In this document: in pieces, positions 7,430 through 46,402 of the stretch
Numbering within the stretch: position 1 is the first letter of the stretch
Layout of the letters: every line of letters begins with the position of its first letter
IMG/VR virus record: IMGVR_UViG_3300047400_000175
Length of the DNA stretch: 64,000 nt
Strand: one strand, 5' to 3'
From: an uncultured virus (IMG/VR IMGVR_UViG_3300047400_000175)
Taxonomy: Duplodnaviria > Heunggongvirae > Uroviricota > Caudoviricetes
The notes under the pieces: generated by a model
Told to the model about the DNA's origin: nothing
What the model saw: only the letters and a program-made list of their open reading frames with translations
The model's database searches: none
Made by a program: the position numbers and the translations under genes

Positions 7430-9340
7430 TCAAAATAAATTTAATTGTCTATCTATTATATTATCTATTTCTTTATAACATTCTTTAATGTAGTAATTAT
7501 AATTAACATCATATTCTTCAAACGGAAGTTCTATATATTTATTAAAAATAGTTACTTTATATCCAACATGTATAAATTCTTTTGAACCTTTGTCATAGTA
7601 TTTAACAAAAGTATCTCCATTATTAGAAATGTAATATCTTACATTCTTTTGTTGTTTTACAATTTCTTCATAAGGCATTCCACAATGATTGTATGCTAAA
7701 CAATGTGTTTTCCCTATAGAAGTAGAAAACTTCTGTCTTCCACAAAAATCATAAATATCCTTATGAGCATATATTGTTTGCTCAACAGGAATATTATTAA
7801 CAAAATATTCTCTTAATGCTAGAGGTATAATTTTAAATGAATTATCTTTATGATAAGCTGGTTCAGAACCAACTACTTTATCAACTTCAAATCTACCTTT
7901 AGTTTTAATTTTACCATCACTTGTAATTCCAATATAATTATTTACGTCTCCTATTATAAGTTTTTGATAATCAACAAATTCCAATGTTAGTTTAGTAATA
8001 TTTTCCCATTCTTTACATATATTATTAAACATATTAATAGAATGTTCATTATTAGGAATTAATATTTCTCCACCATCAGTATTCAACATAAGCATTTTAC
8101 TATCTGGAATATTAGAAAGTTTCTCACATAACATAACTAAAGATAGTTGTCCACCCAAAGTTATACTCATTGTAAACTTAGGATCATATAAAAAACTAAA
8201 TTCATCATTCGATTTTCCGTAAACACTATTAGCGGACAGCTTAAATGCATCAGAAAGTATCATATTCTTGGCTTTTTTAGCTTCCAAACGTCTATCTACA
8301 AGAGATTTATATACATCTACAAATATTTCTCCTAAATGTTCAGGAAATAATTTGTTTTGTATAGATAAACTAGGATATAATGAGCTTACATCAAACGACT
8401 TTATAATAAATTTTTCATTACTTTCATAAATTCCTGATTTTGACACGCCATGAACACCACCTAACCCAAAATCATACTTAAAGCCTTTATAAATTACTGA
8501 TTTTTCAATAGCTCCTTTAGTTTCAACAACAATTTTACTTTTAAAGAAATTTAACAATTCATTAAATTCTTTACTTTCAAATTTAATATATGAAAGAATA
8601 ATGTCATTTAACACTATTTCTTTTCTATTAGAGCGTAGATCTTTAATATCTGATATGTCTATTTCAGAAGCTTCAGAATAAAGCTTTAAAACTAATTGCT
8701 CACCTATTTTACTATCGCTCCAATTTCTACAATTAATATTAAATTGTTGTCTCAAAGAATTTCTAAGTTCTATTTTATTTTTAGATTTTAAATAAAACTC
8801 ATAAGTAGCCATCACATCATTAAGATTATATTCTAATATTTCATCAACTTGAGAAATATTAATATTCTCTTCTTTGTGAGAAATTGGCATATCCATTACA
8901 TTAGGATAATTCATAGAAATTTCTAATGATTTTAAATTAGTACTTCTAGCTTTATTATTATAATGCCAAAGTCTAAATAAATCTAATTGAGGACAAATCC
9001 AATCTTTTTCAGAAATTATATGAGAATACTCTTTATTTCTAGATTTATCAATACATTCTTGGGCTTTCAAATATAATTGATTTATAACATGTTTAACATC
9101 TAGTAATTGAAACGACTTCTTATTACACCAAAAATAATGTAAAACAGGATAATCAAAGCTTATATTATTAAAACCAATCATGCCTTTACATAAAGACAGA
9201 AAATCAATTAATTGCTTAATATCATTTCTATCTTTATGTAATACATATTGTTTAACTTCTGAAGTATTTATATTAAAAACTGTTAATGTAAAACACGATT
9301 TAAGTGTTTCAATATCAATAACATATACTTCTTTATTCAT
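7430..9340 (-). CDS. polB: family B DNA polymerase with 3'-5' exonuclease
   Basis: Exo DIET, FN..FD and YN.ND; polymerase motifs DVSSLYPS, KLSANSVYGK and NTDG. Confidence 0.92.
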   Translation of the reverse strand: MNKEVYVIDIETLKSCFTLTVFNINTSEVKQYVLHKDRNDIKQLIDFLSLCKGMIGFNNISFDYPVLHYFWCNKKSFQLLDVKHVINQLYLKAQECIDKSRNKEYSHIISEKDWICPQLDLFRLWHYNNKARSTNLKSLEISMNYPNVMDMPISHKEENINISQVDEILEYNLNDVMATYEFYLKSKNKIELRNSLRQQFNINCRNWSDSKIGEQLVLKLYSEASEIDISDIKDLRSNRKEIVLNDIILSYIKFESKEFNELLNFFKSKIVVETKGAIEKSVIYKGFKYDFGLGGVHGVSKSGIYESNEKFIIKSFDVSSLYPSLSIQNKLFPEHLGEIFVDVYKSLVDRRLEAKKAKNMILSDAFKLSANSVYGKSNDEFSFLYDPKFTMSITLGGQLSLVMLCEKLSNIPDSKMLMLNTDGGEILIPNNEHSINMFNNICKEWENITKLTLEFVDYQKLIIGDVNNYIGITSDGKIKTKGRFEVDKVVGSEPAYHKDNSFKIIPLALREYFVNNIPVEQTIYAHKDIYDFCGRQKFSTSIGKTHCLAYNHCGMPYEEIVKQQKNVRYYISNNGDTFVKYYDKGSKEFIHVGYKVTIFNKYIELPFEEYDVNYNYYIKECYKEIDNIIDRQLNLF

Positions 9341-10139
9341 TCTCTAAAATTTTTTTTTCTTTTAACGATTCATCAATAGAATATTTTAATTCATTAATTT
9401 TAACTTTATATTTATTTGTTAAATGCGCTAAATCTATTTTAAATTCTTTATCAAACTTATCAAATACAAATTGATGGTGTTCTTGATTAAAACATAATTC
9501 CCTATAACAAGAAGCATCTGATAAATGAAGCCTATCGTAATTAAAATCTAAAGTATTTAAAAATCCTTTAAAACTAATTGAACTTTTATAAGAGATATTC
9601 ATTCTATTATAATATTTATAAAATAATTCTTGAAGATATATTTGATTTGTCTCCCAATTAGCATTACTCATAAACTCCATAGCCATTTGAATATTAGGAG
9701 TATTTAGGGATTTAAATAATTCACTACATTGATGAAATAATTCTAAGTTACCTTCATATTTATAAAGATATTTATATACATCTTCTACCCAAATAAATTT
9801 AGTATTTGGATATATATCAATTATATCTTTAATTTCTGTAAACCAACCTAATACTCTATTCCTATCGTAATTTCTCCAATTATAATCTTGTCCATAATTA
9901 TAACATTTTGTTTTTAAAATATTATTTATAACAACAATATCTGATTTATTTACATCTCTTTTTATTTCAAATCCAGCATCTCTTAATTTAGATTGACTTA
10001 TCTTCTTATCTAATAAAAATAATTTATTATTTTTTATGTCTTCTTTTGTAATATTAATTTCAGAGATAAAATCATCTGTTGATTTTTTATCTAAAACAAA
10101 ATACCAAGATTTATTATTTAATTCTATCGGTAATGTCAT
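9333..10139 (-). CDS. MoxR/vWA-associated protein (long form, carries shared motif)
   Basis: Contains ELFKSLNTPNIQMAMEFM; paralogous to 10136..10966. Confidence 0.75.
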   Translation of the reverse strand: MTLPIELNNKSWYFVLDKKSTDDFISEINITKEDIKNNKLFLLDKKISQSKLRDAGFEIKRDVNKSDIVVINNILKTKCYNYGQDYNWRNYDRNRVLGWFTEIKDIIDIYPNTKFIWVEDVYKYLYKYEGNLELFHQCSELFKSLNTPNIQMAMEFMSNANWETNQIYLQELFYKYYNRMNISYKSSISFKGFLNTLDFNYDRLHLSDASCYRELCFNQEHHQFVFDKFDKEFKIDLAHLTNKYKVKINELKYSIDESLKEKKILENE

Positions 10140-10966
10140 TTTAATTCTAATTTAAAATCTTTAAGTTCAAATTTATTAGTATAAATAGTGTTTGAAAGAA
10201 AATCATTTACTTCATTTAAAAACTTATTTCTAATATATAAAATAAGTTTATCTTTAATAATAGGATTATTAATAGAATCTATACATTTATCCACACCATA
10301 ATTACTTTGTCTTAATAGACTTCTTAAAGAATCTTTAAGTCCTAAAGTACTGATATAATTAGATATAATTGAATTTTCATCATAGTCATCTAATCTATCC
10401 CATTTATCAAAATATAAATATATTATCCATTCCCAATTATCTTTTAAACTAGAATTTAATAACATGTTTACAGCAAGTTTATGGTTATCTTTAAAATTAG
10501 AATCAATTAATTCTTTTAAATTAAAATAATTTTCTTCTGTAATAATAAATCCATTATTTAATGAATTATTTAATACATCTTGATTTACATATTTAATATT
10601 AGGATTTACTATTGTAAAATCCAATATTTGTTTAATACATTCAACATCTAAATCTTTCATATTATATATTCCATAAACAGGTTCCTTTGTTTCATCAGAA
10701 CATATATTTACACCATCATAAAATTGAACATAATCTGTAATATTAAACCTATTAATTATACAATAATTTGCTTTTTCTTTAAGTCTAACACGATTAATAT
10801 TTTTATCAAGATAATCTGTTATAAGACGGGGAATAGTTGTGTTTTTAGTAAATATAATATTACTATCATTTGGAATTTCTACATCATAATTATTCCAAAT
10901 ATTAAGAATATGATTTCTTAACTCCTCATCAATATATTTATTAATTCCTACCTGTATTATTTTCAT
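10136..10966 (-). CDS. MoxR/vWA-associated protein (long form, carries shared motif)
   Basis: Contains ELIDSNFKDNHKLAVNML. Confidence 0.75.
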   Translation of the reverse strand: MKIIQVGINKYIDEELRNHILNIWNNYDVEIPNDSNIIFTKNTTIPRLITDYLDKNINRVRLKEKANYCIINRFNITDYVQFYDGVNICSDETKEPVYGIYNMKDLDVECIKQILDFTIVNPNIKYVNQDVLNNSLNNGFIITEENYFNLKELIDSNFKDNHKLAVNMLLNSSLKDNWEWIIYLYFDKWDRLDDYDENSIISNYISTLGLKDSLRSLLRQSNYGVDKCIDSINNPIIKDKLILYIRNKFLNEVNDFLSNTIYTNKFELKDFKLELK

Positions 10967-10967
10967 A

Positions 10968-12188
10968 TTATTTATCTAACATATATTTTAAAAATCTTGG
11001 ATCACTACCTAAAATAGCAGCAAATTGATTACCAACAGTCACTGTATTTCTAACTAACAAATACTTTTGATCTACACTAAAACTAGGATGTAGAAGTATT
11101 TCAAGATATTGTTTAATATTATCTTTAGACATTTCTTTATGGTAGTGTCTAACATAATTATACAATCTTGTAGTTAAAATAGCAGCAGTTGCTGATTTCC
11201 AATTTGTAGGATCTTTTTCAGTATCTCCACAACATTCTGTTAATTGAGCCTTAGCTGTTTTAACATCATATTCTTTGATTAGTTTTTTAACTTCAGGGAG
11301 TTTATCAAGTCTTTTATTAACAAAGTTAATAAGATTACTAGCTAAATATTTTCCTGTTGTTATTTCACCAAACATTGAAATTTGATCTAAATGTTTCTCA
11401 AAATCATCTATTGTAGATACTAAACTAAAAAACTTATCCATCATTCTCGGAGAAATATTTCCAGAGGCAGATATTCCATCTTGCTTTTTATGTTCAAGAA
11501 GCTCAGGCATCCAGAGAACAAAATTAATTAACCTTTCATCCAAACCAATCTTTTCAGCTCTAGAAGCCCAATCTTGAGGATCCCACTTCATATAAATTTT
11601 AGCCATTCTATCTGTTTGAGCAGAGTCATTAGAACTAACATTATATTCTCCATTATCTGGATTCTCATTAAGAAGTATTGTAACTCCTTTAGATTTCAAA
11701 TCCCAACCAACCATTTCATGAGAATTAACTAATTCCATAATAGCTTGATTAAACAATGAATTACTTCTTGTATAATCATCTAAACATAAAATAGCATTAT
11801 CCTTTAAATCAGCAATCCAATTAGGAGGACAAGGTGTTGTCCTAACTTTACCTACATATTTATAACCTTGTTTTTCATATTCAGGTAATAAATTTTCAGT
11901 TATCCAAAGAGATTGTTTTTCTTTTTTAACTTCAAACTCCTTAAAATAATATCCAATTAGCTCTGATGGCTCTGTTAATTGAGCAAGACTAATTTTTTTA
12001 AATTGTCTATCTAAATCTTGAGCTAATTCTTTTTGAATAGTACTCTTACCTATTCCTCTTTCTCCAATGACACTAATACTAATTGGTATTCCACCAGCAG
12101 CATGTATTTTATCATTTGCTTCAATAGTGCTTTTAATAATATTATAAACTTCACTAGGTTTATATTCTACTTCTTTTATTTTTGACAT
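10968..12188 (-). CDS. MoxR-like AAA+ ATPase
   Basis: Walker A GERGIGKST; LAQL.E..EL.G; Walker B LCLDDYTR; sensor NP; D.AQ.DR; SPR. Confidence 0.85.
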   Translation of the reverse strand: MSKIKEVEYKPSEVYNIIKSTIEANDKIHAAGGIPISISVIGERGIGKSTIQKELAQDLDRQFKKISLAQLTEPSELIGYYFKEFEVKKEKQSLWITENLLPEYEKQGYKYVGKVRTTPCPPNWIADLKDNAILCLDDYTRSNSLFNQAIMELVNSHEMVGWDLKSKGVTILLNENPDNGEYNVSSNDSAQTDRMAKIYMKWDPQDWASRAEKIGLDERLINFVLWMPELLEHKKQDGISASGNISPRMMDKFFSLVSTIDDFEKHLDQISMFGEITTGKYLASNLINFVNKRLDKLPEVKKLIKEYDVKTAKAQLTECCGDTEKDPTNWKSATAAILTTRLYNYVRHYHKEMSKDNIKQYLEILLHPSFSVDQKYLLVRNTVTVGNQFAAILGSDPRFLKYMLDK

Positions 12189-12191
12189 ATT

Positions 12192-12740
12192 TTAAAATGG
12201 TATTTCTATTTCTTGTGTTACTTTAACTTTAGTTATTCCTCTACCTGGCGTATTAGCCTCCCTCAATTGAGAATTATAATAATCATTACCTCCAGTAAGA
12301 GCCTCATATTGTTTACCTAAATCTCCAAGTCTCATCAATAATATATCAGATTTAATTTCTCTGAACATATTATTCCTTTCTGTTTTTAAAAAATCTAATA
12401 AATTATTTTGATTACCTAATTCAATAGATTTATAAGTTTTTTCTTTAATAAGATATTTATTTCTTCCATAAGGAATATTAACAATATCTCCTAAATTTTT
12501 ATTTGTTATTTTAAATCTGGAATTACTTTCTGTATCATTATTATTTCCACGTTTTTTAGCATAGACAATATAATCATTTTCTTCATTTTTTAATAAACTT
12601 TCATTATCTAACCAATTAGGTATTGGTAAAATAAATTTAACTTTTAAATTATTAACATTATTATGATCAAATTCACATCTAATTGATTTATTTTTTTGAA
12701 AATTAATGTGATTTTTAATTAATATTCCTATTGTATTCAT
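12192..12740 (-). CDS. hypothetical protein ending in EIEIPF
   Basis: 182-aa ORF inside the AAA+/vWA operon. Confidence 0.75.
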   Translation of the reverse strand: MNTIGILIKNHINFQKNKSIRCEFDHNNVNNLKVKFILPIPNWLDNESLLKNEENDYIVYAKKRGNNNDTESNSRFKITNKNLGDIVNIPYGRNKYLIKEKTYKSIELGNQNNLLDFLKTERNNMFREIKSDILLMRLGDLGKQYEALTGGNDYYNSQLREANTPGRGITKVKVTQEIEIPF

Positions 12741-13024
12741 TCTATTTTACAATTTAATTTACAATTTATTAATACTTCATAATAAGATAGTAATTCCTCA
12801 TAAGAACCAGATTTTATATCACATTTACCTTTATTATGAACTATATTTGCTATTTGTTCTGCCTGTACACTATCTATATTTAATATACAACACAAACAAT
12901 ATATTACATAATCAAATGAATTAACATCATCATTATATAATATTAATTTTCTATTATTACTTAATTCTATCGAATCACTAAGTAATTCAGAAATATCTAT
13001 TTCTTCTATTTCTTGTTTCTCCAT
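12737..13024 (-). CDS. clpS: ClpS-like Clp protease adaptor
   Basis: LILYNDDVNSFDYVI..L...QAEQIA..VH.KGKC.IK.G matches the ClpS core. Confidence 0.88.
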   Translation of the reverse strand: MEKQEIEEIDISELLSDSIELSNNRKLILYNDDVNSFDYVIYCLCCILNIDSVQAEQIANIVHNKGKCDIKSGSYEELLSYYEVLINCKLNCKIE

Positions 13025-13335
13025 AAGTCGATTTTATATTTAGGTTCTTTTTCACTATTTGGTAAAAAATTATAAGTAATTGATGATCTTTTAAAATATT
13101 CAAAATACCAAAAATAAAATAAATTATAAGAAGGCTTTGTTGGATCTTGTATACCAATATAAGGTACGCCAATTAAGAAAAACCAATACAATATAGCTTT
13201 ATTTTTTTTATTTAATACTTTATTTTCTAATTTATAATGTAATAAATTAAAATAAATAATAATATTAGCTAAATCTGAACTTGTATATAAATCAGCATCG
13301 GATTCAATTATTTGAATTAATTCTTTATTTTTCAT
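13006..13335 (-). CDS. small protein of motif array
   Basis: DLYTSSDLANIIIYFNLL near the N-terminus. Confidence 0.7.
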   Translation of the reverse strand: MKNKELIQIIESDADLYTSSDLANIIIYFNLLHYKLENKVLNKKNKAILYWFFLIGVPYIGIQDPTKPSYNLFYFWYFEYFKRSSITYNFLPNSEKEPKYKIDLWRNKK

Positions 13336-13600
13336 TTAATAAACCATATAATAAATTTACAGCAATTATGATATTGGGGTGGTCATTTGATTTAACCAAA
13401 TCTTCAATTACATTATTTTCTATATTTTTATAAAACATAACATTTTTAATAAGAATAATCATAGATCTGTGGTAATGTATTGACGATGAATTTTCAATAC
13501 TAGTAAATCGCCACTCATTAAATTTCTTAAAGTTAGTATTTAAAATAAAATTTTCCTTATCAATAATATACGATAACAATTTTTCACATACTTCTTTCAT
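13325..13600 (-). CDS. small protein of motif array
   Basis: C-terminal DLVKSNDHPNIIIAVNLL. Confidence 0.8.
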   Translation of the reverse strand: MKEVCEKLLSYIIDKENFILNTNFKKFNEWRFTSIENSSSIHYHRSMIILIKNVMFYKNIENNVIEDLVKSNDHPNIIIAVNLLYGLLNEK

Positions 13601-13872
13601 ATTTCTAATTTATTACAAATTATCTCACCAGCTATTGTTAAATTTGGTAAATCTTTAGTTTCAATTAAATTGAATACTAATTCATCATTAATCTTTTTAG
13701 TTTTAATAATGAATTTTAATAAAAGATAATACCACTTTATGTATGATGAATCTTTTGAGCTATCGTTTACCCAACTAAAATAAGAAAATGGTCCATAATT
13801 AGGAGACATTATTTTATCAGGATAATGCTTTTTACAATATAATGCTATTCTAATGTAATTATTTTGTTCCAT
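13597..13872 (-). CDS. small protein of motif array
   Basis: C-terminal NLIETKDLPNLTIAGEII. Confidence 0.8.
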   Translation of the reverse strand: MEQNNYIRIALYCKKHYPDKIMSPNYGPFSYFSWVNDSSKDSSYIKWYYLLLKFIIKTKKINDELVFNLIETKDLPNLTIAGEIICNKLEI

Positions 13873-14146
13873 TTAATTGTTTTAATAATTCTATACATAT
13901 AATTAAATTAGCAATATCTTCAGAATCTATCAAGTCATTAATTTGTTCAATATTAAAGTTTAATGATTTATATAATTCATATATTGTTTTGTAATAATTA
14001 TTCGTAGCATGTGAAAATTGATAATACTCACGATATACATTTGTACTAAACATATTATATTTTGCCTTATCTTCCTCTAAAGAATCAAATATATCTACCC
14101 AATTATACCATAAAAATTCTACTCTTGCTTTATCTTTTTCTGACAT
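13859..14146 (-). CDS. small protein of motif array
   Basis: C-terminal DLIDSEDIANLIICIELL. Confidence 0.8.
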   Translation of the reverse strand: MSEKDKARVEFLWYNWVDIFDSLEEDKAKYNMFSTNVYREYYQFSHATNNYYKTIYELYKSLNFNIEQINDLIDSEDIANLIICIELLKQLNGTK

Positions 14147-14460
14147 TTTATATAATTATTTACAATTATTTCCATACATATTGTTAATTCGGGAACTTTA
14201 TAATTAGAATTATTATAATCACAAGAATCAATTAATTCATTCACAAACTTATTTTTAATTTTCTTTAATTTTAAAAATTCAGTAATTAAAAAATATAAAA
14301 ATTCACCATACCTTTTATGTTTATGATCTTTATATAGTATTTTTAGATCTTCATAAGTTTCAATCCAAAGTTTAGGATGTGTAAAGTAAGATAAAGCATC
14401 AACATTTGGTATTTTTTTAGCTAAATACTCTACTAATATAATATAACTATTCTTTTCCAT
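14119..14460 (-). CDS. small protein of motif array
   Basis: C-terminal ELIDSCDYNN(7-aa insert)LTICMEII. Confidence 0.8.
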   Translation of the reverse strand: MEKNSYIILVEYLAKKIPNVDALSYFTHPKLWIETYEDLKILYKDHKHKRYGEFLYFLITEFLKLKKIKNKFVNELIDSCDYNNSNYKVPELTICMEIIVNNYIKCQKKIKQE

Positions 14461-14746
14461 TAAAGTATTTATAATTTAATAATTCTAAACCTATTATTAC
14501 TTCTCCATCATTATCACTGTTAATTAAACTGTCTATTTCATCATCTTTTATATCTTTATATGCTAAAGACCAATAATATAGTTGTTTAATATTTCTAATA
14601 TATGTTGAAAAGAAAAAAATATTTATTTTACCACTTGTAGCATCATGACTCCATAAATGCAAATCTATTGTTGTATAACCTCTAAGAAATTCAACTATAT
14701 TTAAATAAGCTTGAGATATTTCTAATCTTTCGGAATCTTGATCCAT
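14447..14746 (-). CDS. small protein of motif array
   Basis: C-terminal SLINSDNDGEVIIGLELL. Confidence 0.8.
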   Translation of the reverse strand: MDQDSERLEISQAYLNIVEFLRGYTTIDLHLWSHDATSGKINIFFFSTYIRNIKQLYYWSLAYKDIKDDEIDSLINSDNDGEVIIGLELLNYKYFNGKE

Positions 14747-15906
14747 GTATTATGATGTTTAATAGATTCTTCATTTCCGTTAGAACTAATTACCCACAAC
14801 ATCTTTTTATTACAAGGAGGAGGTGTTTCTGCCTCTCCATCTGTAAATACTAACATACTATTAAATTCAGGATGTTTATTATAAAATTCTATAACAGGAG
14901 TAAAATAAGTACCTCCACAATTAGTTCTTTTAAATTGTCCTGAATTAGGTTTGTAAACTACTGGCTTCATAACCTTTGTATCAAAAGGTCTAATTTCAAT
15001 ATCTGTTTTTTTAGATAAATGATGAATTTCATTTAAAAATTCAAATAATTCATTTTCAGACACACTACCTGATTCATCAATACATACTAATATTTTAGAT
15101 TTAGGTTTTAATATTACTTTAGGAGCACCTTCAAATCTTTGATTTTCTCTTAATTTAGTAGTACCTATCATATATTGCTTACTATTACCAACAAAATTAG
15201 AAATATATTTTTTATAATTAAATTTAGGCTTAGGTTTAACAAATCCATTAATTAATTGCTGTATTTCAATAGGTAAATTTCCTTGAGATTTAGATATTTC
15301 TTCAGCAATAGATTCAATAGTATGTTCTACTTGAACTCTTATAGCATCTTTTTGAGCATCTGTTAATTGTTCATTAGAAGGATTACCTTCACCATCAGTA
15401 ATAATCCATTTATGTTGAGCTTTTTCATCAATACCTAATTCTTCTTTTTCTTTTTCAGATAATTTACTTAATTCTTTGTAATAATGAGCTCTACCAGCAT
15501 GGTTTTTCCAATCTAATTTAGGATATTTATTAGCAAAATCTTCTAAAAAACATCCCCATTCAGGTAAATTACTTTTATCACAAAGTTGATTAATTTCAAT
15601 ATCACAAGCTATGTTATCCATTTTAGCATTAGGATAAGCATCCATTGTAATTAGATGAAAATTAGTTAAATGCAGAGCTTCATGTTTAAGAAGATTATAT
15701 TTAACTTGATCAGAATATTTATCCCACTCATCAGGATTAATCAATAAGCTAAATTCCATTGTTGCTTTATTAAGACCAACAGCAGCTAATGGAATATTTT
15801 TATTTTCTTTTTTTTCTATTGATGATATGAATAACCCATAAAAAACATCATTAATTAATAGTTTTTTTGTTATTCTTGATATATCAAGTATTAAGTTTTG
15901 ATTCAT
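14722..15906 (-). CDS. HExxH metallopeptidase-like + vWA domain protein (DUF2201-like)
   Basis: HEALH...H and NIACD.EIN in the N-terminus; MIDAS DESGS, GGT and FTDG in the C-terminus. Confidence 0.88.
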   Translation of the reverse strand: MNQNLILDISRITKKLLINDVFYGLFISSIEKKENKNIPLAAVGLNKATMEFSLLINPDEWDKYSDQVKYNLLKHEALHLTNFHLITMDAYPNAKMDNIACDIEINQLCDKSNLPEWGCFLEDFANKYPKLDWKNHAGRAHYYKELSKLSEKEKEELGIDEKAQHKWIITDGEGNPSNEQLTDAQKDAIRVQVEHTIESIAEEISKSQGNLPIEIQQLINGFVKPKPKFNYKKYISNFVGNSKQYMIGTTKLRENQRFEGAPKVILKPKSKILVCIDESGSVSENELFEFLNEIHHLSKKTDIEIRPFDTKVMKPVVYKPNSGQFKRTNCGGTYFTPVIEFYNKHPEFNSMLVFTDGEAETPPPCNKKMLWVISSNGNEESIKHHNTWIKIPKD

Positions 15907-16126
15907 TTTTTATTGCTTTTAAAAATAATTCACAAATATTATGGTTATCATCAATTGATGAAAGATTTAAATATAACATTGGAGCTTTAACAAATATTGC
16001 CAATAACTCTTTGTTATGAATAATAAATATAACTTCTCCTGTCTCTTTAGTGGGAAAACAATGATAAGCTTCCTTTTTAAATACCAAATCATATAGTTCA
16101 TAATAAAAATTAGTCATAATTTTCAT
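15884..16126 (-). CDS. hypothetical protein, weak match to array motif
   Basis: LNLSSIDDNHNICELFL near the C-terminus. Confidence 0.65.
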   Translation of the reverse strand: MKIMTNFYYELYDLVFKKEAYHCFPTKETGEVIFIIHNKELLAIFVKAPMLYLNLSSIDDNHNICELFLKAIKNESKLNT

Positions 16127-16360: not shown

Positions 16361-17416
16361 TTATTTATCTAATCTAATACCTACCATTACTGGAAATCTT
16401 GGAATTCCATTTTCTGAATATTCAAAAAATCTAATTTCAGCAGTTTTTCCAATATATTTATTTTTATTTTGTAATAAATCTTCTCTATCTTCATAAGACA
16501 TTTTTACTCCTGATTTAAAGGATTTACCTCTTAATTCAAAATGAGGAGTTCCATGTAAAGGATTAGCTTCATTTGGAGTAATATCTATTATTTTTAAAGC
16601 AATATCTTGAAAATCCTTATATTTTAATAAATTACTACTTCTACCATTAACTTTATAACCTTCTGTTCCCCATCTAATAATACTTCCTTCATAACCATTA
16701 GAAATATTATTAGAATGCAATTCTTTTAATGTTTGTTCATTAGGGCAATTATAAGTATTAACTTCATTACAAGTAAATAATCCTTTAATGTATTCTCTTA
16801 TTTTTCTAGCATGAAAAGGTAAATTAGAGATCAAATCATAAACATGATATTGAATTTTAACATCTGTTTCCAAAGGTCTAAATTTTTTAATTAATCTCAT
16901 ATTTTCTTGAAAATTATCCCCATAAGAATATAATTCTCCATCAAGAATAACTTCTTTTGTAATAGTAGATAATTCTTTAACAATATGAGGAACAGTAGTA
17001 ATTTCTTTACCCTGTCTAGACATTAATTTAACTCCTCCTTTACCATTAATAAAAGCTAGGCATCTCATTCCATCTAATTTAGGTTGAATATAACAATTAT
17101 TCCAATCTATTTTATGTTTCTCATCTTCATAAGATTTAGCAAGCATTGGGAGTATAACTTCTTCGGTATTACATTCTTCAATAGTTTTAAAATAACCTTC
17201 AGATAATTTTTCTTCTATTTTAGAATTCATTTCTAATACACTCTGTTCTTCAGAAGTAGTTTCATTAGATTTACCAATATTCTTCCCTTTACATACCTTT
17301 GTATGAATAATTGATTTTCCTTTTAATATTCCTGATTCTTGATATAAATTACCAGAATCAGCCCAAATTTTTAAAAATCTAATTTTACCTTTTGTATCTT
17401 TTTTATAAAGTATCAT
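16361..17416 (-). CDS. lig: ATP-dependent DNA ligase
   Basis: PMLA; motif I KLDGMR; LDGELY; YD; EG..IR; LLKYK; PRFP. Confidence 0.93.
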   Translation of the reverse strand: MILYKKDTKGKIRFLKIWADSGNLYQESGILKGKSIIHTKVCKGKNIGKSNETTSEEQSVLEMNSKIEEKLSEGYFKTIEECNTEEVILPMLAKSYEDEKHKIDWNNCYIQPKLDGMRCLAFINGKGGVKLMSRQGKEITTVPHIVKELSTITKEVILDGELYSYGDNFQENMRLIKKFRPLETDVKIQYHVYDLISNLPFHARKIREYIKGLFTCNEVNTYNCPNEQTLKELHSNNISNGYEGSIIRWGTEGYKVNGRSSNLLKYKDFQDIALKIIDITPNEANPLHGTPHFELRGKSFKSGVKMSYEDREDLLQNKNKYIGKTAEIRFFEYSENGIPRFPVMVGIRLDK

Positions 17417-18060
17417 TAATTTGTTGTAATATTGTGGTGATCCACTATAATAGTAGACCTATTTTTCATTATTTCTAATATTTCATCTAAATGATAAGGG
17501 TATAAATTATTAGTATCAACACCTACATCCATAGATTTACCAAATTCTGGAAGTGTTCCATGAGAATGTCCATAGAGCATAATACTTCCTTTATGAGATT
17601 TATTCCATACCCTCATAGCATAATGAGATAAACAAATCATTTGTTTTCCGTATTTACCTGATTTTTGACAATCTATTTTGAGATTTAACTCTTTATAATA
17701 ATCACAAGAAGTAAATAGTTGTCTATATGGACTATTTATTGGTGTGATATGTTGGTCATGATTACCAAATATTAAATGAATATTCTTACAATTAATTCTA
17801 TCTCTGAATATTTTAATCTGTTCATGTCCTCCAAAACTCCAGTCACCTAAATGATATAAAGTATCATTTTCCTTAACAACAGCATTAATAGAATTAATAA
17901 TTACTTCATCATGTTCTTCTAAAGTATTAAAATCTCTTGTTCTTTCAAAACTAGTAGGTCCTTTATTTTCTTCTAAAAGCCATTCACTAGTTCCTCTAAC
18001 AATATTTTTATGATGAAAATGAGTATCACTAGTAAAGAATATATTTCCTATTTTTTCCAT
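17416..18060 (-). CDS. calcineurin-like metallophosphoesterase
   Basis: SDTHFHH, LGD, GNHD, HY, GHSH and DVGVD motifs. Confidence 0.9.
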   Translation of the reverse strand: MEKIGNIFFTSDTHFHHKNIVRGTSEWLLEENKGPTSFERTRDFNTLEEHDEVIINSINAVVKENDTLYHLGDWSFGGHEQIKIFRDRINCKNIHLIFGNHDQHITPINSPYRQLFTSCDYYKELNLKIDCQKSGKYGKQMICLSHYAMRVWNKSHKGSIMLYGHSHGTLPEFGKSMDVGVDTNNLYPYHLDEILEIMKNRSTIIVDHHNITTN

Positions 18061-18458
18061 AGTTTATTATAATTTTTATACATATTATTCATTACTTCAT
18101 TTGGAATATATTTACCCGTTTTTAAATATCTAAATATATTTCTAATTTTAGCTTTTCTTAAAGAAATATCAAATCTTATCACTACTATATTCCAATTAAA
18201 ATCTTTATTTAAATTTTTTTTAATTTTATCAATATAAATTTGTTTACAATTAGTATTATCAATTATAATATTTGTATAAGCAGTATTAAGAATATCATAA
18301 AATTTATTCCATATCTCATCTTCATTTTCTTTAGAGAATATATAATTATTTCCTCTTAAATTATCACAAGAAATTACACAATAACTATGTGCATAATTTT
18401 TAACAAATCTTGATTTACCACTGCAAGGTATTCCTGATAATATTATACAATTATACAT
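18048..18458 (-). CDS. polynucleotide-kinase-like P-loop protein (AAA_33)
   Basis: GIPCSGKS; ISCD..R; IIDNTN; RN..R. Confidence 0.8.
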   Translation of the reverse strand: MYNCIILSGIPCSGKSRFVKNYAHSYCVISCDNLRGNNYIFSKENEDEIWNKFYDILNTAYTNIIIDNTNCKQIYIDKIKKNLNKDFNWNIVVIRFDISLRKAKIRNIFRYLKTGKYIPNEVMNNMYKNYNKLWKK

Positions 18459-19767
18459 TTTGTTCTTCTTCTATGTTTTTAATTTCTTTATCTAAAGATT
18501 GTCCTTCATATAAAAGAAATTGTTTAGATTTAATTTTATATATTTCAGGTCTATTGCAAGTATCTTTTCTTATACAAAATCCTTCTTCCACAACAGAATT
18601 ATCTAATATACTTTGTTGTTCTAATAATCTATTATAAAAAATCCAATCAAAAACTAATGGAAAATCAGGAAACATTTTATCGAAATAATGAACTTGAAAG
18701 AAATCTTGAATTGTGCCATAAAATAATTCAGGACAATAATCAACTCCTAACTGATTACATCTTTCTTTCATTTGTAAATAAGATAAATCTACTTCAATTC
18801 CTTGAGAATTAATATTAGATATTCTATAAATATATACTTTAGGTTTATTAAATCCATAAGAATATCCTGGTTGAATATCTTCATCACTATAAGTTTTACC
18901 TACAATTTCACAATAAATAGCTTCTCCTGCATTTAATTTACCTTCAAAGTATTCTTTACCCACTTCAGACCAAAGATCTCCAGAACTAAAGAAATGATTC
19001 TTATTAGGCAATTCTTCAAATCCTACAGATTTAATACATCTTCTGCTACCAGCAACAAAATCATAAGATTCTTCTTGAATTTTCACACCGAAGAATTTAG
19101 CAATTTTATCTTTAATAGTTAATTTTCTTTTAACTAATGTATTATAATATCTTGCAGAAGTACCATGAAGTTTATACGTTACAGCAATATAATCATTTAA
19201 ATCTAATTTATGAATATTTTTTAGTAAATGAGAAGTATCTGGATGTTCTGGAACAAATTTGCTATCAATAATTTCATCTAAAACTTTTGTTTTAGGATTA
19301 GACATTCCTTTTTGTTTAGTATATTTTATATATTTTTTACAAATTTCTATTCCATTAATAGAATTAAATTCATTTTCAATTTTTAAATCAGGAACTATAA
19401 TTTTTCCTTGAATATGTAAATAATCTAAAGAATCAATAGGAATAATAAATCCAGAAGATATTACACTTTTAAATTTAATAGCTTTAACTCTTCTATTATC
19501 CTCAAAAAATCCTTTTTTAGAAGCATCTACATTTAAGTGAGTGTGTCTATATAAATTATTATTACTTAAAAATTCATGATTTAATTCACATTCTACTGGA
19601 AAAAATAAATATAATTCATTTTCATTAGATTCCTTACTTATCAAGCAAGAATTACCTTGATAATTTACACTAACAAGATTGTTAAGTCCTTGTATTTCTA
19701 TTTTATTAGGAAGTTTTATAACTTGACAAGTATAATTTTCACTTCCTTTTAATATTTCTAATTTCAT
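18451..19767 (-). CDS. RNA ligase with N-terminal OB-like domain
   Basis: Motif I YKLHGTS; GSR; YCEIVG; EEGFCIR; YKIKS. Confidence 0.82.
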   Translation of the reverse strand: MKLEILKGSENYTCQVIKLPNKIEIQGLNNLVSVNYQGNSCLISKESNENELYLFFPVECELNHEFLSNNNLYRHTHLNVDASKKGFFEDNRRVKAIKFKSVISSGFIIPIDSLDYLHIQGKIIVPDLKIENEFNSINGIEICKKYIKYTKQKGMSNPKTKVLDEIIDSKFVPEHPDTSHLLKNIHKLDLNDYIAVTYKLHGTSARYYNTLVKRKLTIKDKIAKFFGVKIQEESYDFVAGSRRCIKSVGFEELPNKNHFFSSGDLWSEVGKEYFEGKLNAGEAIYCEIVGKTYSDEDIQPGYSYGFNKPKVYIYRISNINSQGIEVDLSYLQMKERCNQLGVDYCPELFYGTIQDFFQVHYFDKMFPDFPLVFDWIFYNRLLEQQSILDNSVVEEGFCIRKDTCNRPEIYKIKSKQFLLYEGQSLDKEIKNIEEEQNV

Positions 19768-25429: not shown

Positions 25430-26400
25430 ATTCTAAATTAACTAAGAGCTAGCTGCACTGATGGTACATTCTGGAGCTGTGTATTACGGGTACAAAAGTA
25501 TAAATACTTTTCCTTGCATCATACATCATCCTTAGATTAGTTAATAAATATAAATATTTATTTAAATCGCCATACATCCTGGCTTATTTTGTCAAAATGT
25601 TAGTTTTTAAAAAGTTAAAAGAAATATGAGAGGTGGTTATTCACCACACTCTCATTACTCTCTAACCCTCATCAGCATTGGGTTTTAAAGCAATATTAAA
25701 TACAATCAAGCAAGCTATTAATAGAAGTTCCGTTATCTAAACCTTCTAGGTCAATCCTCGTATGACACTATTAATAACTTACTGTAATTGTAATTCACAT
25801 AACCTCTCTAACTCCTTAATAATCAATAAGTTATGAGATTAAAATCAATACCAGAGTAATATTATAAGAGAGACAGAGGTTAATCCATCTCTCTATAATA
25901 TAACATATTGGAATATGTAGAACAATTGTCAAATTGTTCATTCCACCACACTTGGCCCCAAGATTCTGAATAGACATACTATCTCTCGTAGTTAAACAAG
26001 AGGTGAGAATATACACTTATTATCATTACTTTATCTATGATAATTTACTTCTCTACATCATAAATGTAGTTTGCAAGTGTCTGCGACGGTAGTAATTAAT
26101 CAGCCTCCTTGCTTATGCAAGTAATCTACTGATTTATACAATTTATAGTATGCAACTACTACCTGAGTTTATTGATCTAAAATTCTCTTTTTATTTGCCT
26201 ATTAGAGAGAACCTAAAGGTTTATTCCAAATAGAGTATTGTAAAGAACTCTAAATTATTTATCCTTTTATATGGTAAGGACTAGTGGAATCGAACCACCC
26301 TAAACCATTGTCCTTATGTTAAACACCCTATAGCCAGATTTGAGAATATCAATACTGGGTAGGCAATGTTTATTTATTAGAGCAAGACATAAATGCCGTA
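25430..26400 (-). ncRNA. candidate structured non-coding RNA(s)
   Basis: About 1 kb with no credible ORF and dense inverted repeats; contains a mini-tRNA. Confidence 0.45.
26272..26315 (-). ncRNA. tRNA-like minihelix (acceptor + T-arm + CCA, no D or anticodon arm)
   Basis: AAGGACA-ATGGTTTAG-GGTGG-TTCGATT-CCACT-AGTCCTT-A-CCA. Confidence 0.7.
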
Positions 26401-26409
26401 GGCACCCCA

Positions 26410-26685
26410 CTATAGGGTGTCTACGACATTGGCATTGCTCTTACTGTGCAAGATATACATAGAATCACCGCCTTCAATGGTACACAAAGATACCACGGGA
26501 TTAGGTTGATACCCTTTGGTGCTTACGGCACCCCGAACACTACCTGCCACAAAGAATAAAAGTCCCGTGTTAGGATTTTTGATAATCTCAAGTTTATCTG
26601 CCTTACCAAGAGATTTAATTTCAGCAATAGTATGCTGACTTGCAAATTTGAGGGTTTGTTTCCCTGCTAAAATTGTTGTTTCCAT
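26410..26685 (-). CDS. first gene of the leftward arm, hypothetical
   Basis: 91 aa, higher GC; KNPNTG.LFF...GAVS...PVVS. Confidence 0.8.
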   Translation of the reverse strand: METTILAGKQTLKFASQHTIAEIKSLGKADKLEIIKNPNTGLLFFVAGSVRGAVSTKGYQPNPVVSLCTIEGGDSMYILHSKSNANVVDTL

Positions 26686-26890
26686 TTTTTTAGATTTTAA
26701 TTTATATCAACACAATGAAGGGGGAGGGTTTAGGGGTAACTCCATCCCTCTATACCCACAAAAAAAATTTTAAAAAAAATTTTTAAAAAATTGCAACCAT
26801 TTATAATATGAATACGTCTTAGATATATAAGGCAGTAAATAAGTGTATTATCAAGTAATTGATTATCAATCATTTAAAATTTATTTTCAA
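26686..26890. other. divergent strand-switch region (candidate origin, terminus or early promoter)
   Basis: Gene polarity flips here; G-run/C-run block at 26718-26760 followed by A/T tracts to ~26792. Confidence 0.5.
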
Positions 26891-26930
26891 AAATACTTGA
26901 CAATGTCATAAATTTATTGTATATTATATA
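26891..26930 (+). promoter_or_regulatory. repeated promoter motif, copy 1
   Basis: TTG(26897)-N20-TATATT(26920). Confidence 0.7.
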
Positions 26931-26934
26931 ATGT

Positions 26935-27205
26935 CACACCATAGTCCGATGGTGTATCATCTAGAAGCCAGAGAAGAAGGTTGTACAGATCAGAAGTCGG
27001 GTAGTATAAACAAATAGTTTAGAGGTGCCCCGATAGACAGAAAAGAGCTTAATTGCAAATTAGCACGACTAGTAGCCAAGGGCTAGGGCATAGGGAATAA
27101 CTAGTGTATGGGAACAATAACCTGAGTGCAGTGAGGATTAAGTTAAGGCTACCTGAAAGGGATTAGTTGAGAAAGATGAAACTTTCATAGGGAGATACTA
27201 TGTAA
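26935..27205 (+). ncRNA. candidate ~270-nt structured RNA or leader
   Basis: Starts just after promoter copy 1; GC-enriched; no ORF; serial hairpins. Confidence 0.5.
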
Positions 27206-45463: not shown

Positions 45464-45654
45464 AACTTTCAACAGCAAATTATTATAAACAAACTCCTAA
45501 AAAAATGAGAAAATTAGGAGATGGTTTATTAGGACTTTCTACATTACTTACATCATATGCTATAATAGATGAGTGGGGGAAATGCATACAAATAACGTCA
45601 ATGGTACTCGGAGTGCTTGGTAAAATTTTAACAAATTTCTTTTCAGATGAATAA
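45460..45654 (+). CDS. small 2-TM holin-like protein
   Basis: TPKK.RK.GD..L; two hydrophobic segments; GK.LTNFF. Confidence 0.65.
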   Translation: MKLSTANYYKQTPKKMRKLGDGLLGLSTLLTSYAIIDEWGKCIQITSMVLGVLGKILTNFFSDE

Positions 45655-46402
45655 TGTATACTATGTATATGTACATTATAAACTTAGTGATGGTACTCCT
45701 TTTTATATAGGTAAAGGTAAAGATTATAGACATAATTCTAAAAAGAATAGAAATAATTATTGGAAAAACATTGTAAATAAACATGGATTTATATCTCAAA
45801 AGTTAGTTGAAGATATAACAGAGAAGGAAGCATTCAGTGAAGAAATGTTTTATATTTCTTACTTTAAATTTTTAGGATTTAAATTATGTAATATGTCGGA
45901 CGGTGGAGAAGGTAATAATAATCCTTCAGACGAAGTTAGAAAAAAATTAAGTTTTATTGCTAAAAATATTTCAGATGAAACTAGAAACAAAATGAAATTA
46001 ACAGCTATGGGTAGGAGAGTTTCAGATGAAACTAGATTAAAGATGTCAATTAAACACAAGAATCCTTCAGTAGAAACACGACAAAAGATGTCAATGAGAA
46101 GTAAGGGAAGAAAACATTCTCAAGAAACTAAAAATAAAATGTCTATTATTAATAAAAATAGATCTAAAGAATTAGTAAAAAGAATAACTGATAAAAATAA
46201 AATACCCATTATACAATTGGATTTATATAATAATTTTATAAGTGAATGGGATTCTGCTACTGATGCTGGTAAAGCTTTAAAAATAACACCATCCGACATA
46301 AGCTGTTGCTGCAAAGGAAAGTATAAAAATAGATATAAAACAGCTGGCGGGTTTAAATGGAAGTATAAAAATAATGAAGTAACACAAACAGGAAATATTT
46401 AA
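45647..46402 (+). mobile_element. free-standing GIY-YIG homing endonuclease with NUMOD3 repeats and NUMOD1
   Basis: YYVY.H...FYIGKG...R; E; N..DGGEG; repeated S.ETR.KMS; I..CC.GK..TAGGFKWKY. Confidence 0.88.

Follow-up and report, generated by a model that had tools for sequence, protein, structure and literature searches.

Pairs made of an AAA+ ATPase and a protein that joins a zincin-like metallopeptidase to a vWA domain (von Willebrand factor A) occur in many phage lineages, and we know of none for which a function has been shown. CrAss-like phages are very abundant, and their replication modules are still largely unannotated. For jumbo phages, Iyer et al. 2021 (PMC7824862) describe a MoxR AAA+ ATPase paired with a vWA protein whose N-terminal part is a metallopeptidase, for which a role in virion assembly is proposed, and treat phage ClpS as a likely route by which targets reach host ClpAP. 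We focus here on a gene cassette at positions 9333-16126 of a 64,000-nt stretch of DNA (IMG/VR record IMGVR_UViG_3300047400_000175; hereafter the window), which its sequence identifies as most of the genome of an uncultured crAss-like phage. As in the jumbo-phage pairs, of which AR9 g028/g029 is an example, an AAA+ gene here adjoins a gene for an N-terminal zincin-like peptidase with a vWA domain. The cassette differs from those pairs in that it always includes at least two further proteins built around a predicted helical hairpin, whereas the jumbo-phage pairs lack such proteins nearby, and in that it lies in a replication module, whereas virion assembly is the role proposed for the others. 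A preliminary description of the region had put forward a short motif common to eight or nine of its proteins and read it as a docking element for the AAA+/vWA machine; our searches indicate that the motif is significant and restricted to this block, and that it marks a set of proteins that accompany the pair.

The block holds 13 open reading frames (ORFs), all on the minus strand, in which adjacent genes overlap by 4-28 nt or sit 1-3 nt apart, in line with the tight overlap noted in the preliminary description. The peptidase, protein L (14722-15906), has 394 residues and combines DUF2201_N with DUF2201, and the ATPase C (10968-12188) has 406. Two core hairpin proteins lie at one end of the block, namely A (9333-10139, 268 residues; motif at residues 141-157, DNA 9669-9719) and its paralog B (10136-10966, 276 residues; motif at residues 153-169, DNA 10460-10510). 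Five mini-proteins follow one another elsewhere in the block, and four of them end in the hairpin: G (13325-13600, 91 residues, motif DNA 13349-13399), H (13597-13872, 91 residues, motif DNA 13618-13668), I (13859-14146, 95 residues, motif DNA 13883-13933) and K (14447-14746, 99 residues, motif DNA 14477-14527). The fifth, J (14119-14460, 113 residues, motif DNA 14164-14235), has a 7-residue insert in the turn of its hairpin. In F (13006-13335, 109 residues; motif at residues 16-32, DNA 13240-13290) the hairpin is N-terminal. The positions attached to the copies when the motif was first reported are gene ends and not motif positions.

The strict pattern first put forward gives 5 matches in a six-frame translation of the window, all within the region, and 0 matches in 300 residue shuffles of the 85 predicted window proteins. 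Since the pattern was drawn from the same sequences, this shuffle test is partly circular, and independent tests were therefore added. When an iterated motif hidden Markov model (HMM) was scored against all 215 window ORFs, the eight best were A, B, G, I, H, F, K and, last, J; those before J have independent E-values (i-E) of 1.6e-9 to 2.2e-4 (F 1.2e-4), J stands at 0.09 because its match is split by the turn insert, and the next-best ORF scores 4.1 bits. After 3 iterations, this model gave 93 matches at i-E<0.01 among the ORFs of the window and 30 related loci, and 0 matches among the same ORFs reversed. Models trained on one set of carriers also recovered others: training on G, H, I and K alone found F at 4e-5 and J at 0.009, with A at merely 2.2, and training on A and B found G at 1.5e-4. 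On related loci that had not been used in training, the first motif HMM recognized orthologs of A, of B and of the small proteins at i-E 6e-8 to 0.007, together with two weaker small-protein matches (0.029 and 0.27). The motif is absent from protein L and C by HMM scoring, and no further copy turned up in the rest of the window or within the 10-kb flanks of the loci. Of the nine copies first listed, eight match the profile, J with its insert. The weakest candidate, in the 80-residue ORF M (15884-16126), was rejected at 0.4-3.2 bits; the position of M is held by a hairpin protein in related loci, and the ORFs found there in loci L001 and L003-L006 carry the motif.

Structure prediction puts the motif where a helix-turn-helix hairpin makes its turn. 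In A's model (pLDDT 89.4), it spans the end of a helix (132-143), a turn (144-146) and a second helix (147-158), and in the model of K (pLDDT 79.9, pTM 0.73) the corresponding elements are helix 69-75, turn 76-79 and helix 80-95, the hairpin packing against the long helix 43-64. Conserved Ser/Thr and Asp/Asn residues are located at the turn, an invariant Asn occupies the first turn of helix 2, and a small residue follows one turn beyond it, where the helices cross. A is predicted to have a BRCT-like N-terminal domain (residues 34-126), after which the hairpin opens a helical domain; this arrangement, with a helical domain of ~150 residues behind the BRCT-like one, recurs in A, B and their large homologs. 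The resemblance of the model to ARM/HEAT (helical domain) and BRCT (N-domain) folds is weak and has no counterpart in sequence models, and Arm/HEAT sequence models gave no match at E<=0.1 for the window proteins or at E<=1 for 36 A-family members. Foldseek found no match to the model of A in the PDB at E<=0.001, and sequence-profile searches of the PDB with the A, motif and D alignments returned nothing significant. Four uncharacterised viral proteins in BFVD match the model of A (E 1.6e-8 to 2e-4); one of them belongs to a virus that carries the label crAss-like, and two come from one podovirus genome. The ESM Atlas offered no clue to A (its best score, 0.84, went to an unnamed entry) or to D, and the model of K has no clear match among known folds. 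A, B, D and the mini-proteins have no match in Pfam, PHROGs, NCBIfam or PADLOC. An EF-hand or dockerin-type calcium loop, which has 12 residues and ends in an acidic ligand, was considered for the motif and rejected, as the residue that would serve as last ligand varies from copy to copy (E, N, A or H) and the models give a turn of 3-4 residues instead of such a loop.

The preliminary description called the carriers otherwise dissimilar, which holds between classes and fails within them. G-K are tandem paralogs whose alignments cover most of each protein (107 residues at E 3e-9 for H vs J, for example), and an alignment of the A with the B family extends over 235 columns (hhalign P 3.4e-6). 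When the small family is compared with the A family, on the other hand, only 31 columns align (hhalign P 3.3e-5), and these are the motif, the remainder being unalignable; the F-type family aligns to the A family over 43 columns (hhalign P 9e-4). A profile of 52 motif-centred segments, searched exhaustively against 1.84 billion representatives and rescored to define classes, returned 118 proteins, 116 of which fall into three coherent length classes: 71 small proteins (<=140 residues), 36 A/B-like proteins and 9 larger proteins of 346-434 residues. The other two, a low-complexity protein and an ankyrin-repeat protein, are false matches. The hairpin is found in three architectures, at the extreme C-terminus, at the N-terminus and internally, and 67 of the 71 small representatives hold it within 12 residues of the C-terminus, in agreement with the constant-plus-variable architecture proposed earlier. 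For the large class, the alignment to A covers 149 columns (P 2.3e-15).

Three side observations concern the ends of these proteins. Among the small representatives, 21 of 71 begin with M-[KR]-I-[KP]-[WYF], which adds another conserved element at the opposite end from the hairpin (for example L014:2077-2295), a start not seen in the window's own mini-proteins. Four members of the large class (P0228, P0258, P0273 and P0279) have long acidic C-terminal tails with aromatic ends (..DIDWF, ..DDFF, ..ISWN). In F, an aromatic-rich hydrophobic stretch follows the N-terminal hairpin, and the same build is present in L002:1746-2153 and P0252.

The association of these proteins with the enzyme pair extends well beyond the window. 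A query with the A family retrieved 22 IMG/VR loci, in which the order C-B-A is kept in all 18 that reach far enough, protein L is present in all 13 that reach far enough, and B lies directly between the AAA+ gene and A in all 20 that reach upstream of A. A sister clade, for which the figures refer to the best 80 of 428 loci found with the large class as query, has as its hairpin pair a protein of ~135 residues and one of 410-450. Here the large hairpin protein has a C-like gene directly upstream in 80/80 loci, an L-like gene is present in 76/80 (the remaining 4 end at contig ends), the gap between L and C is at most 60 nt in 65/74, and the N-terminal-hairpin protein of ~135 residues, which matches the B family, ends at the start of protein L in 73/73 loci with at least 450 nt upstream. 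The ATPases of the two clades share only 31-33% identity, and the replication genes of the window recur in the sister-clade locus L072. These counts imply that every cassette comprises both enzymes together with two or more hairpin proteins. That the motif is tied to the AAA+/vWA pair, as first suggested, is thus supported, hairpin proteins flanking both genes in every locus that is long enough. The mini-proteins of the window clade vary from 0 to ~10 per cassette, the largest number being in L014, with eight between L and C and two elsewhere in the cassette. Among GenBank phages, 93 records match protein L, and tblastn with B and with a large-class protein found no relative there; megablast of the region gave 0 matches.

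Both enzymes retain their characteristic site residues. Protein L exceeds the gathering scores of PF13203 (31.3 vs 23.2 bits) and PF09967 (42.9 vs 26.4 bits) and also matches phrog_1314. By the usual definitions, HExxH marks the metal site of a zincin and DxSxS...T...D a metal-ion-dependent adhesion site (MIDAS); in 48 sequences H75, E76, H79 and H84 as well as S279, S281, T333 and D356 are invariant, and D277 is nearly so. Zincin and MIDAS-type sites are thus both kept, and the HExxH plus vWA protein of DUF2201-like type in the preliminary description is confirmed at the level of families and site residues. C matches phrog_1297 at 2.9e-24, and its Walker A residues G42, G45, G47 and K48 and Walker B residues D137 and D138 are invariant in 16 sequences, the Walker B motif being DD, not DE. 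C is encoded beside a vWA/MIDAS partner, its best PDB match is Midasin, confined to the P-loop region (residues 38-83, E 5e-5), and no NCBIfam model matched.

In some relatives, the genes of the two enzymes are interrupted. The gene for protein L is split by a 278-residue ORF with two LAGLIDADG-like motifs in L003:7121-7957, and also in L004-L006, and by a 235-residue ORF in L084:900-1607; the AAA+ gene is split by a 249-residue ORF with a GIY-YIG-like start in 9/80 sister-clade loci (L112:8029-8778 and eight more). The intervening ORFs look, from their sequences, like homing-endonuclease or intron insertions, and their presence in both genes would fit genes that are strongly conserved and important.

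The explanation that we favour, with a confidence just short of even, is that a cassette conserved among uncultured crAss-like phages has been elaborated here in one lineage, and that its hairpin is a shared contact into the ATPase/vWA-peptidase assembly. The conserved cassette consists of the zincin-vWA peptidase L, the MoxR-like AAA+ protein C and at least two hairpin proteins, here B and A. The lineage of the window would have copied the hairpin onto a row of mini-proteins of 55-130 residues with fast-changing heads, and these, together with ClpS and D, would have been inserted into the slot between L and C. The hairpin would then act as a common protein-protein contact to the L/C assembly, either directly or through the helical domain of A/B, while the variable parts may recruit different clients or regulate them. 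In an ATP-driven manner, these clients would be held by the vWA MIDAS and cut at the zincin site, and ClpS, where present, could deliver the products, with their new N-termini, to Clp protease of the host. The case for docking comes from three features taken together, namely that co-occurrence is strict, that the hairpin is placed terminally and that a constant part is combined with variable ones. As to the nature of the clients, the replication neighbourhood and the BRCT-like domain point to replication-associated ones, a weak suggestion that the assembly acts at the replication apparatus. The pair in this clade comes with dedicated and recognisable partners, two per cassette and up to ~10 extra in some genomes, which offers a concrete handle on what the AAA+/vWA machine acts on.

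Several observations weigh against this explanation. First of all, C remains below the Pfam cut-offs of the MoxR-type models AAA_3 (14.6 vs 27 bits), AAA_5 (20.2 vs 22) and bpMoxR (18 vs 27); with a Midasin match limited to the P-loop, we thus call it MoxR-like and not MoxR, and of the MoxR-type AAA+ ATPase originally named, the AAA+ assignment stands on Walker A and B and the MoxR membership is not established. Second, the loci were fetched from IMG/VR contigs through cassette proteins (A-type, L-type and large-type queries), and locus searches that started from single mini-proteins gave none for P0262 and P0275 and, for P0268, two weak loci without the cassette families. Third, four loci of the window clade itself (L015, L026, L027 and L029) have no mini-protein. 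Fourth, the ATPase/vWA pairs of the phages AR9 (Bacillus), CRP-7 (Roseobacter), AD45-P1 (Alteromonas) and D505 (Vibrio) have no hairpin within 3.5-5 kb. All four pairs are recognised by the present profiles: the L-family HMM matches their proteins at E 4e-55 to 7e-36, and the C-family HMM matches AR9 g028 (3.5e-10), D505 (1.3e-7), AD45-P1 gp052 (COG0714; 2.6e-7) and CRP-7 gp07 (1.5e-3); four phage lineages thus possess the pair without the motif, and the machine does not generally need it. Finally, a tight helical hairpin needs the conserved positions anyway, and their conservation alone is thus no proof of a docking surface.

These last two points also speak for the main alternative, that the hairpin is an inherited fold element of diversifying paralogs with no common binding site, the adjacency to L and C arising from co-regulation as early or replication genes, or from the proteins being independent clients. 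The paralogy of G-K over most of their length and that of A with B speak for this alternative, as do the match of the ~135-residue upstream proteins to the B family and the 149-column alignment of the large class to A, and in the models the conserved residues fit helix capping and packing. Three findings are harder to accommodate. The alignment between the small family and A is restricted to 31 columns; a position at the very end of the chain in 67 of 71 small proteins would be odd for the remnant of a core; and at least two hairpin proteins are maintained per cassette despite the low identity between the ATPases of the two clades. On this balance, we consider inheritance without a shared contact possible but somewhat unlikely.

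A different role for the small proteins would make them the clients. The terminal hairpin would then be a recognition tag for cutting, with ClpS taking up the products, or active peptides would be released. The terminal motif of the small proteins and the invariant peptidase site are consistent with such a role, as are the location of ClpS inside the mini-protein array (in the window, L010, L012, L014 and L023) and the recurrent M-[KR]-I-[KP]-[WYF] start. ClpS is missing from most cassettes, however, the hairpin is internal in A, B and the large class, and no cleavage site is defined. Furthermore, we know of no MoxR-type ATPase that acts as an unfoldase on terminal tags. We thus regard the client role as quite doubtful.

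The hairpin might instead bind one host protein, such as a replication or repair factor, and define a host-takeover family that merely shares an early-gene neighbourhood with the pair. The block does lie between DNA polymerase and ligase, in a replication/repair module, A has its BRCT-like domain, and the AR9 pair (g028/g029) is preceded by an annotated early promoter. Yet hundreds of contigs keep a strict gene order beside L and C, with stops and starts overlapping, and no copy of the motif occurs outside the cassette, in the window or the 10-kb flanks; we find this role improbable. Host defence proteins, which the preliminary description had named as possible targets, receive no support, as PADLOC gave noise only and the cassette belongs to a replication module. 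Lastly, a chance origin of the motif in an AT-rich, Asn/Ile/Lys-rich proteome, to which the GC content and the derivation of the pattern from the same sequences might have pointed, is refuted by the shuffled and reversed controls, the retention of the motif in untrained orthologs and the hhalign P of 3.3e-5.

Returning to the elaborated cassette that we favour, ClpS and D are lineage-specific additions outside its core. E (12737-13024, 95 residues) is a ClpS homolog by PF02617 (1.7e-15; 57 bits vs a cut-off of 23), and the NCBIfam ClpS equivalog cut-offs are not reached. Among A-type loci it is present in the window, L009, L010, L012, L014 and L023, and in 0/80 sister-clade loci; the homology first proposed holds, and ClpS is an optional insert. 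F overlaps the start of E by 19 nt. D (12192-12740, 182 residues) has no family match and is present in 7 related loci; its C-terminal Phe is invariant in all 6 aligned sequences. Several relatives of D end in ..IPF or ..LPF behind an acidic stretch, an ending that resembles the C-terminal tip of bacterial SSB.

The cassette forms part of a replication/repair block. One side of it has primase, a helicase-like protein, a Sak4-like protein and DNA polymerase (7430-9340), and the other side an ATP-dependent DNA ligase, a phosphoesterase, a polynucleotide kinase and an RNA ligase. The last three are consecutive at 17416-19767, which is the usual composition of an RNA-repair set. The major head protein of the window shares 36-39% identity, over 96-99% of its length, with head proteins of crAss-like phages, the matches comprising 149 records with Flavobacterium and Cellulophaga phages among them. 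GC content along the window is 21-32%, and minus-strand genes run from ~26.7 kb down to base 77. At ~26000-27200, the sign of the GC skew flips and coding passes from the minus to the plus strand, the gene blocks being divergent. A homing-endonuclease-like ORF (45647-46402; phrog_314, 5e-24) lies within the structural gene block.

Searches of the literature on crAss-like phages with MoxR or Crassvirales with von Willebrand found no paper, those on crAss with VWA domain gave none on phages among the matches listed, and those on DUF2201 and on MoxR with phage-encoded vWA gave nothing on hairpin partners. The cellular RavA-ViaA and CbbQ-CbbO systems are similar in that an ATPase works with a vWA/MIDAS cofactor thought to hold a client, and they differ in that their vWA partner is not known to contain a peptidase domain or to be accompanied by a hairpin-tagged accessory family. 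ARM/HEAT scaffolds are solenoids, whereas the mini-proteins here have a single hairpin and no Pfam Arm/HEAT match. ClpS is known as the N-degron adaptor of ClpAP, a family to which E belongs, and is optional in this setting. In Midasin/Rea1, an AAA ring and a MIDAS domain grip small adaptor domains. The likeness to our proposed assembly lies in an AAA motor with a MIDAS that binds one small element on several partners; the eukaryotic protein, on the other hand, consists of one giant polypeptide and binds ubiquitin-like domains as ligands. Finally, the substrate receptors of cullin-type ubiquitin ligases combine a constant docking box with a variable target-binding part. A bolder form of our explanation, which we think doubtful, would have the hairpin act in a comparable way, as a portable docking tag that plugs a rapidly evolving set of mini-adaptors and two fixed BRCT-like adaptors into the ATP-driven vWA-peptidase for programmable proteolysis or remodelling of replication-associated host or phage proteins. 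There is no homology between the two systems and the chemistry is different; by analogy, however, both would couple a short constant element to many variable heads within an expanded family.

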